A stretch of 38,657 nucleotides of DNA from Barnesiella intestinihominis (GTDB taxonomy: Bacteria; Verrucomicrobiota; Kiritimatiellia; RFP12; UBA1067), in the NCBI GenBank assembly GCA_963612485.1, contig CAVDWI010000002.1, positions 1 to 38,657 of the forward strand, in the 5' to 3' direction. Shown here in pieces: positions 11,566-12,565 of the stretch. Both the position numbers and the translations under genes were made by a program. The notes beneath the pieces were generated by a model, which saw only the letters and a list, made by a program, of their open reading frames with translations, was not told the origin of the DNA and did no database searches. Each line of letters opens with the position of its first letter. The stretch's first letter is position 1.

Positions 11566-11574
11566 TGGTATAGT
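11566..11574 (+). promoter_or_regulatory. Extended -10-like element TGGTATAGT ahead of the DUF3791/DUF3990 triad
   Basis: TGGTATAGT lies in a locally AT-rich stretch. An in-frame ATG at 11582 follows after 7 nt, the same geometry as other putative leaderless genes here. Confidence 0.45.
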
Positions 11575-11581
11575 AGGCGAT

Positions 11582-11848
11582 ATGACTCAACGGTCACACA
11601 CATTGTCTGTTCCGGACAGGATGCGTGACGAACGCGATTATCGGCGTGTTCGCCTCGCGGTTGCGGCAATTGAGCGGGGCGCAAGGATCATGGGCATCAG
11701 CGGTCGTGAAATGCACGACCGGCTGAAGGCTCAGGGCCTTGTCCGCTCTTATCTGCTTGATGGCTATGAGCCGCTTCATTCGCAAAGCTTTGAGTATGTC
11801 GCCGACACCACGGTCGAGGCACTTCGCAATTGGGAGAGCTGCCGGTGA
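11582..11848 (+). CDS. DUF3791-like small helical protein
   Basis: The segment IERGARIMGISGREMHDRLKAQGLVRSYLLDGYEPLHSQSFEYVADTTVEALRN matches the recalled DUF3791 pattern (..Y....gis..ev......G....i...Y..LHt.s.eyiv.di). Start is uncertain: ATG 11534 (SD AGGAG, ATGA overlap with upstream gene), ATG 11582 (leaderless) or ATG 11621. Confidence 0.65.
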   Translation: MTQRSHTLSVPDRMRDERDYRRVRLAVAAIERGARIMGISGREMHDRLKAQGLVRSYLLDGYEPLHSQSFEYVADTTVEALRNWESCR

Positions 11849-12345
11849 TTGTGTTTCATGGTTCATACATGGCCGTTGACCGTCCGATGGTCGAGCAGGG
11901 ACGATTGCGGGTGGACTTCGGACGCGGGTTCTATCTGACGGAACTTCGTGAACAGGCCGCGATATGAGCGGTGGCGGTTTCGCGGCGACATCGGGGCGGG
12001 ATGCCGGTTCTGAACGTGTTTGATCTTGACCTGGAACGCGCCCTCGCCTTGGCTGGTTCGCGGCAGAGGAGATTTGCCGCGTATGACCTGGACTGGCTGG
12101 ACTATGTCGTGGACTGCCGTTGCGGGGGACATTTGCAGACGCAATATGACATTGTGGAGGGTGGTGTTGCGAACGACAATGTCATTGATACGGTCGAGCT
12201 TTACGAGAGTGGTGTCATTACGGCGGAACAGGCTCTCGGACTACTGGCACACAAGAGAGTCAATCACCAGATGGCCATTCTGAGCCAGCGAATCGTTGAC
12301 GGATGCCTATGCTTTCTCGGAAGCGAGGAGGTGCGGAATGCGTGA
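11845..12345 (+). pseudogene. DUF3990-family gene interrupted by one in-frame TGA (11965-11967)
   Basis: GTG at 11845 (GTGA overlap with the upstream stop) reads VIVFHGSYMAVDRPMVEQGRLRVDFGRGFYLTELREQAAI-TGA-AVAVSRRHRGGMPVLNVFDLD... The frame is the same on both sides of the stop. HGS, DFGxGFYLT, QA..W, DW.DYV and YDIV.G.VA(N/D)D match the recalled DUF3990 consensus. The TGA sits where that consensus has Trp. Confidence 0.7.
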
Positions 12346-12565
12346 CGACGTGTTGGAGCGCAAGATTGCGAGGATCATCATGGATGTCGCCAAAGCGTTG
12401 GACGTTTCTGAAGAGCGTGCGCTTGACTTGTTCTATTCGACAGACACATATCGTCAGTTGGTGGACGGCTCAACGGGACTTCAGCTGATGAGCGATGGCT
12501 ACATCCTTGAGGACGCCCTCGCAGAAATGGCAGAACCGTTTTTAGTGGAGATTCCAACCGCCTGA
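12338..12565 (+). CDS. Small helical protein, DUF3791-like paralogue (third gene of the triad)
   Basis: 75 aa. SD GAGGAGG at 12326-12332. The ATG overlaps the end of the DUF3990 frame (ATGCGTGA). Its first 11 nt, ATGCGTGACGA, are identical to those at the 11621 ATG. Pattern ..A..L.VSEE.AL.LFY.S.TY..L.D..T.L...S..YI.E.L..E. Confidence 0.6.
   Translation: MRDDVLERKIARIIMDVAKALDVSEERALDLFYSTDTYRQLVDGSTGLQLMSDGYILEDALAEMAEPFLVEIPTA

Follow-up and report, generated by a model that had tools for sequence, protein, structure and literature searches.

A three-gene DUF3791/DUF3990 cassette in a Kiritimatiellia contig with a nonsense-inactivated central gene for a predicted ADP-ribosyltransferase-fold protein

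The subject of this study is a cassette of three small genes, here called A, B and C, in a 38,657-nucleotide stretch of DNA from an assembly named Barnesiella intestinihominis and placed by GTDB in the Kiritimatiellia (GCA_963612485.1, contig CAVDWI010000002.1, positions 1 to 38,657 of the forward strand). The whole stretch is referred to as the window. A encodes a DUF3791 protein, B a DUF3990 protein and C a divergent relative of A. In the window B is a pseudogene: a change of TGG to TGA at Trp41, a nonsense mutation, has inactivated it. The cassette is probably a decayed copy of a mobile module catalogued as PDC-M13, in which B would be a toxin with an ADP-ribosyltransferase (ART) fold. A reading of the letters made without database searches, below called the sequence-only reading, had proposed the three-gene cassette, an ART-like middle protein and a toxin-antitoxin or defence-type role.

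Results

Gene content and family membership

A, B and C are same-strand open reading frames (ORFs) that overlap at their junctions (Table 1). A scored 39.6 bits against Pfam DUF3791 (PF12668), above the gathering threshold of 25. For the Pfam search with B a Trp was restored at the in-frame stop codon, and the protein matched DUF3990 (PF13151) with 138.6 bits (threshold 32.2) over profile positions 1-148 of 152. C reached 14 bits against DUF3791 (E 0.053), below the threshold of 25. NCBIfam has no model for A, B or C. PADLOC matched A to PDC-M13A (4e-10), B to PDC-M13B (2e-44) and C to PDC-M13C (7e-12), so the window holds the gene set that defines PDC-M13, three adjacent same-strand genes matching the three models. 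B is not intact, having an in-frame TGA at codon 41. Pfam, PADLOC and the overlapping ORFs establish the DUF3791 / DUF3990 / DUF3791-like cassette as real.

Loci of this kind are already catalogued. Pfam includes DUF3990 in its ART clan (PMC7955679). The PDC systems are 145 untested phage-defence candidates, defined by their embedding inside BREX, DISARM or type I restriction-modification (R-M) systems (bioRxiv 10.1101/2024.01.29.577857), and PDC-M13 is reported to be among the most abundant systems in rumen genomes (PMC13356809). DUF3990 is also the C-terminal domain, of unknown function, of Rhs effectors of type VI secretion systems (T6SS) (PMC4524185, PMC10763514, PMC12165300). The window locus is a new, degraded member of this kind. 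The sequence-only reading had stated that no function is assigned to these families; this holds for experiments, whereas ART and defence inferences exist in the Pfam clan and in PADLOC PDC-M13. The evidence from asymmetric gene loss and gene fusion presented below is unpublished, as far as the searchable literature shows.

Table 1. Positions of the cassette genes and associated features in the window.
Feature	Position	Strand	Status and basis
Promoter-like site, TTATCA + 17-nt spacer + TG-extended TATAGT	11546-11574	+	Consensus scan; putative function
Gene A, DUF3791 protein, 88 aa	11582-11848	+	Intact; ORF list, Pfam, PADLOC
Gene B, DUF3990, predicted ART-fold putative toxin	11845-12345	+	Pseudogene in the window; 166 aa with stop restored
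In-frame TGA in gene B, inactivating lesion	11965-11967	+	TGG to TGA at near-invariant Trp41, QAxxWA motif
Gene C, 75 aa, divergent DUF3791 paralogue	12338-12565	+	Intact
Long imperfect hairpin, last codons of C into intergenic region	12538-12652	+	Inverted repeat and RNA folding

Gene B is a pseudogene

The TGA aligns with W41 of the QAxxWA motif. This Trp is invariant in 60 close relatives, and among 72 diverse family members the position is occupied by W in 50, F in 14, Y in 5 and M or L in 3. TGA closes more of the window's likely genes than any other stop codon (20/31), among them A, B and the gene upstream of the cassette. Together with the window GC content of ~62%, this indicates that the genome uses the ordinary bacterial code, and an alternative genetic code was rejected because TGA is the main stop of the window genes. 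The proposal that TGA is read as Trp was therefore wrong; other assemblies of the species also have TGG at this position.

The species was compared through three NCBI assemblies: that of the window, L001 and L004. L001 is 99.5% identical to the window over 7.2 kb and has TGG at codon 41, with a CAG to TAG change at Q37. L004 is 98.96% identical and has the same Q37 stop. Since outgroups carry CAG and TGG at these codons, Q37* and W41* are two independent events, and W41* is specific to the window. The window and L001 differ at 35 positions per 7195 nt, and 3.8% of the possible substitutions in B create stops. About 0.09 nonsense differences in B would be expected between the two, and 2 were seen (Poisson P ~0.004). 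In a lineage with an 89%-identical cassette, the same +1 frameshift, within a G8 tract at codon ~95, is present in four assemblies (L005-L008). The species and its relatives therefore contain three independent lesions, W41*, Q37* and the +1 frameshift. No intact B allele above 89% identity was found in a collection of 5.8 billion proteins.

The dN/dS ratios of A, B and C against relatives were 0.08-0.34 (0.19-0.34 for A alone), which reflects long-term purifying selection on all three genes and makes the loss of B recent. The window locus can make at most A and C, a dead putative toxin gene with surviving partners, and the middle gene should be annotated as a pseudogene rather than as a recoded gene. 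The frameshifted tract has eight G's in L005-L008 and five in the window (equivalent position ~12125-12135); slipped-strand changes in this G run might switch the toxin on and off, in which case the frameshift would not be a dead end.

Predicted fold and active site of B

B was modelled through its closest intact homologue, P0001, which is 89% identical, 166 amino acids long and free of insertions or deletions relative to B. The AlphaFold2 (AF2) model has a mean confidence (pLDDT) of 93.2 and a predicted template-modelling score (pTM) of 0.87. In a Foldseek search of PDB, ranks 1-17 were all but one ART-superfamily proteins (best E 0.017, template-modelling (TM) scores 0.40-0.49). The top match was the RES toxin 6gw6_A (E 0.017, TM 0.44/0.49), and further matches included VPA0770, KptA/Tpt1, tankyrase, MbcT, PARP1, cholera toxin and a diphtheria-toxin homologue. 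Foldseek against BFVD, a set of predicted viral structures, gave five matches at E <= 1e-3. The best of these was a close unnamed homologue (1.4e-11); ART-PolyVal-like proteins matched at E 5e-5 to 1e-3, with TM 0.54-0.60 at 5e-5. Pfam ART-PolyVal was also matched by 11/72 diverse DUF3990 proteins, and was the sole other family matched more than once. PDB sequence searches with two family profiles returned chance matches alone (zoocin, ModA, PDE5). The ART fold predicted for B, with ART-PolyVal as the nearest described relative, is well supported by these comparisons. The sequence-only reading had suggested such a fold from motifs, and the confident P0001 model, the BFVD matches to ART-PolyVal and the weak but consistent PDB matches bear it out.

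All three motifs on which that suggestion was based, FHGS, DFGRGFYLT and YDIVEGG, are present, with a gap of 16 residues between HGS and DFG, not 17 as reported. Their conservation was examined at two depths. In close relatives (>=55% identity) H5, Y30 and E105 are all invariant, which is uninformative because one fifth of all columns are invariant there. A HMMER search of the whole library for DUF3990 gave 5192 clusters at 50% identity, and the diverse alignment comprised 72 full-length representatives with 29-46% identity. Here the HGS and GxGFY motifs, expected to be conserved, are indeed near-invariant: H5 was found in 71 of the 72, G6 in 63, S7 in 65, D24 in 71, G26 in 71, G28 in 66, F29 and Y30 in all 72, and T32 in 69. 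Further conserved positions are Q37 (69), W84 (72), R92 (71), D102 (71), D111 (70) and Q142 (71).

The Glu of YDIVEGG (E105) had been proposed as the catalytic acid. Position 105 is I in 31, E in 18 and V in 5 of the 72 diverse members, so this assignment fails; the conserved acid is D102. In the P0001 model H5 lies in strand 2-7 and Y30 in strand 29-32, and D102 directly precedes strand 103-107, the fifth strand. The catalytic acid of ARTs normally sits at the start of the fifth strand. From the model and the alignment, the DUF3990 family looks like an H-Y-D variant (H5/Y30/D102) of the ART active site.

The small proteins A and C

The AF2 model of A (pLDDT 87) is all-alpha, with five helices including a long N-terminal one. 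It had no meaningful fold match in PDB (best E 1.8), which leaves a helix-turn-helix (HTH) or known-antitoxin assignment for DUF3791 unsupported. A is mildly basic (isoelectric point (pI) 9.0) and C strongly acidic (pI 4.1, net charge ~-9.5).

The two flanking proteins had been described as paralogous. Alignment of the A and C families with hhalign was not significant with small alignments (P 0.047). With larger alignments of 136 and ~180 sequences it gave P 1.6e-5 and a probability of 79% over 54 columns, and the C domain of a natural B-C fusion (P0284) matched Pfam DUF3791 with E 1e-4 and 22.7 bits. Both results support the paralogy, and C was classified as a divergent DUF3791 relative, not a formal Pfam member. 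An 11-nt repeat, ATGCGTGACGA, occurs in both A (11621) and C (12338). It merely reflects the MRD(E/D) peptide common to the two proteins, and its use as the start codon of A was rejected, as the copy in A of the relative L002 has ACG, not ATG.

Co-occurrence, loss and fusion of the three genes

Starting from B, 79 genome loci could be evaluated, from Kiritimatiellia, Lentisphaeria, Fibrobacter, Bacteroidales, Firmicutes and Actinobacteria. An A homologue adjoins B upstream in 79/79 and a C homologue downstream in 78/79, all full length. Starting from A, 70 metagenome loci could be evaluated, found with a broad A alignment; a metagenome scan with a narrow A alignment gave no matches. Of these 70 loci, 51 had an intact B, 8 a broken one and 11 none. 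C was intact in 50/51 loci with intact B and in 11/19 loci without it. B had been damaged in diverse ways: by a nonsense mutation at codon 105, by internal deletions that kept or shifted the frame, or by reduction to small remnants. Loss of B occurred in at least 14/48 clusters (>=97% A identity), sometimes alongside intact siblings. Loss of C only was seen once, against 19 losses of B, where gene length alone predicts about one third of single-gene losses; a rough binomial test gave P ~0.006, or ~0.02 when only independent clusters were counted.

Comparison of two contigs, L114 and L134, revealed an exact 504-nt excision of B between two ATGA-type junctions, such that the stop of A overlaps the start of C. 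About 5 nt of microhomology surround the ATGA, and a neat A-C operon remains; the same A-C arrangement was observed in contigs L133, L135 and L136. Contig L102 (1035-2967) has a tandem B-C pair without upstream A, followed ~800 nt later by an A-C pair without B.

Fusions join the genes in several combinations. A B-C fusion clade comprises ~40 clusters at 90% identity, one of them with 1293 member sequences, and retains A upstream. On the Bacteroides plasmid pMMCAT a C-A fusion lies upstream of B, and P0213 is a possible A-B fusion. In P0328 the catalytic half of B has been lost in frame, which leaves A joined to the tail of B plus C. A Moraxella osloensis plasmid has the order hsdM, B, C-like, DUF3791, hsdS, hsdR; in this plasmid (pNP7-2, L093, 5454-12482) DUF3990, a C-like 83-aa gene and DUF3791 lie within the type I R-M operon, and three other Moraxella plasmids, to judge from the match table, seem to be organised likewise.

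Taken together, the co-occurrence, losses and fusions suggest that the three proteins cooperate physically. They further indicate that B, unlike its partners, is selected against or can at least be dispensed with. The toxin-antitoxin or defence-type appearance first noted is consistent with this comparative genomic picture.

Junctions and expression signals

The start codon of B is a GTG within a GTGA overlap with the stop of A, and the ATG of C lies within ATGCGTGA, which overlaps the stop of B. B starts with GTG in all three assemblies of the species (window, L001 and L004) and with ATG at the same position in the relatives L002 and L005; the GTG may be a second change that lowers expression. 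Upstream of the cassette, TGGTATAGT occupies 11566-11574, with the ATG of A 7 nt downstream. The earlier description of the coupling and of this element was accurate, while the gene starts were corrected to 11582 and 12338. The consensus scan found one sigma-70-like site upstream of A against 0.6 expected by chance. The site is suggestive of a cassette promoter, and a transcript starting from it would be leaderless or near-leaderless.

No Rfam match was found in 11000-13200, and a scan of the cassette region revealed no intrinsic (T-tract) terminator. The hairpin at the 3' side contains an imperfect 23-nt inverted repeat (83% complementary) and is long and branched, with a minimum free energy of -68.5 kcal/mol over 12530-12700 (z -4.2). 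There is no further copy of it in the window. It may serve as a 3' end or stabiliser, and whether it belongs to the cassette is uncertain. Its left arm encodes the lineage-specific C-terminal tail of C (EPFLVEIPTA).

Genomic context and mobility

The neighbours in the window are housekeeping genes encoding PBP2, an FrhB-like Fe-S protein, a beta-CASP RNase, an RNB-family RNase, RsmE and a decarboxylase. The GC content at third codon positions (GC3) is 0.61-0.63 in the cassette vs 0.70-0.91 in flanking genes, and the closest relatives of the cassette lie in wholly different neighbourhoods. The 138 immediate neighbours of related loci belong to 126 Pfam families, none found in more than 6 loci. 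A conserved metabolic operon, which would have spoken against the defence-type interpretation, was rejected on these counts, as the related loci share no operon. A minority of the neighbours are defence or mobility genes: AbiH, AriA/PtuA-like ATPases, PglX, DrmD, PDC-S01 and IS200. Homologues of B were found on 86 plasmids, many of them from Bacteroides, Clostridium and Moraxella, and in 7 phage records. The triad is a small module that moves horizontally and does not belong to a metabolic operon.

DUF3990 homologues with 24-40% identity occur in uncultured human-gut phage contigs (MT837818.1, MT835728.1, MT838387.1 and MT836695.1), and one within this identity range in Geobacillus virus E3 (KP144388.1, 25691-26125). 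Elsewhere in the window, positions 21001-22000 have a GC content of 0.49, against 0.56-0.69 in the remainder, and may be another foreign insertion. Two ORFs at 8806-10368 (520 aa) and 5035-6264 (409 aa) have coding-like GC3 and no Pfam match at E 1e-5; apart from the three assemblies of the species, only one ENA contig is known to encode the 520-aa protein.

Discussion

We consider it probable, with some reserve, that a mobile three-gene PDC-M13 module has decayed at this locus, and that in such modules B is an ART-fold toxin that A and C bind and restrain. An intact B would most likely use NAD+ to ADP-ribosylate a target, or would destroy NAD+, leading to growth arrest. A, encoded upstream, and C, encoded downstream, would bind B, holding it inactive or controlling its release, a role suggested by the co-occurrence, the fusions and the asymmetric loss. 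The three would make up a unit of the toxin-antitoxin or abortive-infection type, one that moves about on plasmids, within R-M operons and among variable chromosomal sites. The asymmetry of loss and the B-C, C-A and possible A-B fusions fit B as a toxin held by two small partners.

Several observations weigh against this interpretation. The immediate surroundings of the cassette are housekeeping genes, with no defence island, and A shows no recognisable DNA-binding or known antitoxin fold. The PDB fold matches of B are individually weak, with none at E <= 1e-3, and the placement of D102 in the active site rests on its conservation and its position before the fifth strand. B is the largest mutational target of the three genes, so length alone explains part of the asymmetry. 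Abundant B-C fusions are unusual for a simple inhibitor and fit equally well with C as a required subunit. Finally, the searchable literature yields no experiment on any DUF3990 or DUF3791 member.

The fusions lead to the main alternative, that A, B and C form an obligate three-subunit enzyme, in which A and C are structural or targeting subunits of a complex that modifies DNA, RNA or protein in defence or modification, and B was lost because the system is costly. Strict co-occurrence of the three genes, the large stable B-C fusion clade with the C-A and possible A-B fusions, and the embedding within a type I R-M operon all agree with it. We nonetheless regard it as unlikely, because A-C pairs persist in translationally coupled form after exact removal of B, and C is intact in 11/19 loci without B, which is easier to understand if A and C are protective alone; on Rhs effectors, DUF3990 also appears to work as a stand-alone toxin domain with neither A nor C fused to it. 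Protection by the partners could be carried further: selection may now maintain the A-C pair as orphan immunity or anti-addiction proteins, directed at DUF3990 toxins that arrive with T6SS Rhs effectors, plasmids or phages, and the dead B would be a relic. Each of the three assemblies of the species has A and C intact, against two different nonsense mutations in B, clean A-C operons are found repeatedly in other loci, and DUF3990 toxins are delivered by the T6SS in other bacteria and present on plasmids and phages. The lesions are very recent, however, and A and C may just not have decayed yet; C is also gone or broken in 8/19 loci without B. We regard orphan immunity as improbable as an account of the window locus.

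Two further explanations dispute that B is dead. A single-base assembly or sequencing error in the metagenome-derived contig would leave the real gene intact, and among the assemblies only that of the window contig carries the W41 TGA. A different nonsense mutation, however, is common to the two remaining assemblies of the species, four assemblies of a related lineage share one frameshift, and the protein collection holds no intact allele above 89% identity. Disruption of B is thus the norm in the clade, and an error is very improbable as the source of the TGA. A functional B, produced by decoding of TGA as Trp, by readthrough, or as a split enzyme through re-initiation at the GTG at 11971, is scarcely credible and already largely refuted. 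Its attraction is that the TGA falls exactly on a Trp codon with a GTG two codons later. Nevertheless, 20/31 likely genes of the window end in TGA, the codon is TGG in the other assemblies of the species, with TAG four codons upstream, and deletions and frameshifts have destroyed the same gene in many relatives. The GC content of ~62% is also unlike that of organisms known to read TGA as Trp.

The decayed-toxin interpretation can be extended, in a form that is possible and for now doubtful, to a new and very widespread tripartite class: an H-Y-D ART, possibly acting on nucleic acids, would be held by a heterodimer of anciently duplicated DUF3791 proteins, with C able to be fused to the toxin and to act on it in cis as regulator or sensor. 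Gut populations would repeatedly purge the toxin gene, and the A-C pair would survive as stand-alone protection. The comparative evidence yields a concrete model, in which B would be toxic, H5, Y30 and D102 (not E105) would be its key residues, and the homologous partners A and C would interact with it. With 5192 clusters at 50% identity, and a reported place among the most frequent candidate defence systems of rumen genomes, the triad is a good experimental target.

Comparison with known systems

B shares with PARPs the HGS and Y[FL][AST] motifs as tabulated for that family (PMC7955679), and tankyrase and PARP1 are among its PDB matches. In contrast to PARPs, its third residue is probably D102 rather than Glu, its domain is far smaller, and nothing suggests poly-ADP-ribosylation.

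RES-Xre and MbcT toxins are NAD+-degrading members of the ART superfamily, with an R-E-S motif in RES. The RES-Xre and MbcT-MbcA systems provide top PDB fold matches of B (6gw6_A, 8gug_A and 6fkg_B) and likewise place small ART-fold toxins beside small helical partners. B differs in its H-Y-D-type residues and in having two partners instead of one. Pfam gave no RES, HTH/Xre or DUF2384 match for A, B or C, so the cassette is not a member of either group and the likeness is at the level of the fold.

A three-gene layout is found in CmdTAC, a toxin-antitoxin-chaperone defence module whose toxin is an mRNA ADP-ribosyltransferase (PMC11618068). Its third component is a SecB-like chaperone, whereas C is a DUF3791 paralogue of A; Pfam gave no SecB match for C, and no homology between CmdTAC and the cassette was detected.

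DUF3990 occupies the toxin position in T6SS Rhs effectors, including Serratia Rhs5-CT and Enterobacter RhsA (PMC4524185, PMC10763514, PMC12165300). In these effectors an Rhs delivery cage is joined to the domain and an immunity gene lies downstream, unlike the free cytoplasmic, DUF3791-flanked B of the window. ART-PolyVal (PF18760), the ART domain of polyvalent proteins of phages and conjugative elements, is the best annotated structural relative of B. It is typically a domain of giant multidomain proteins, whereas DUF3990 here is a stand-alone protein of 166 aa with two small partners, and the sequence similarity of the two families is below the Pfam threshold.

The closest comparison is with PDC-M13 itself. 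The window copy departs from it in its pseudogene centre and its housekeeping surroundings, outside any defence system, whereas the Moraxella plasmid shows the situation by which PDC systems were defined, with DUF3990 and two small genes inside a type I R-M operon.

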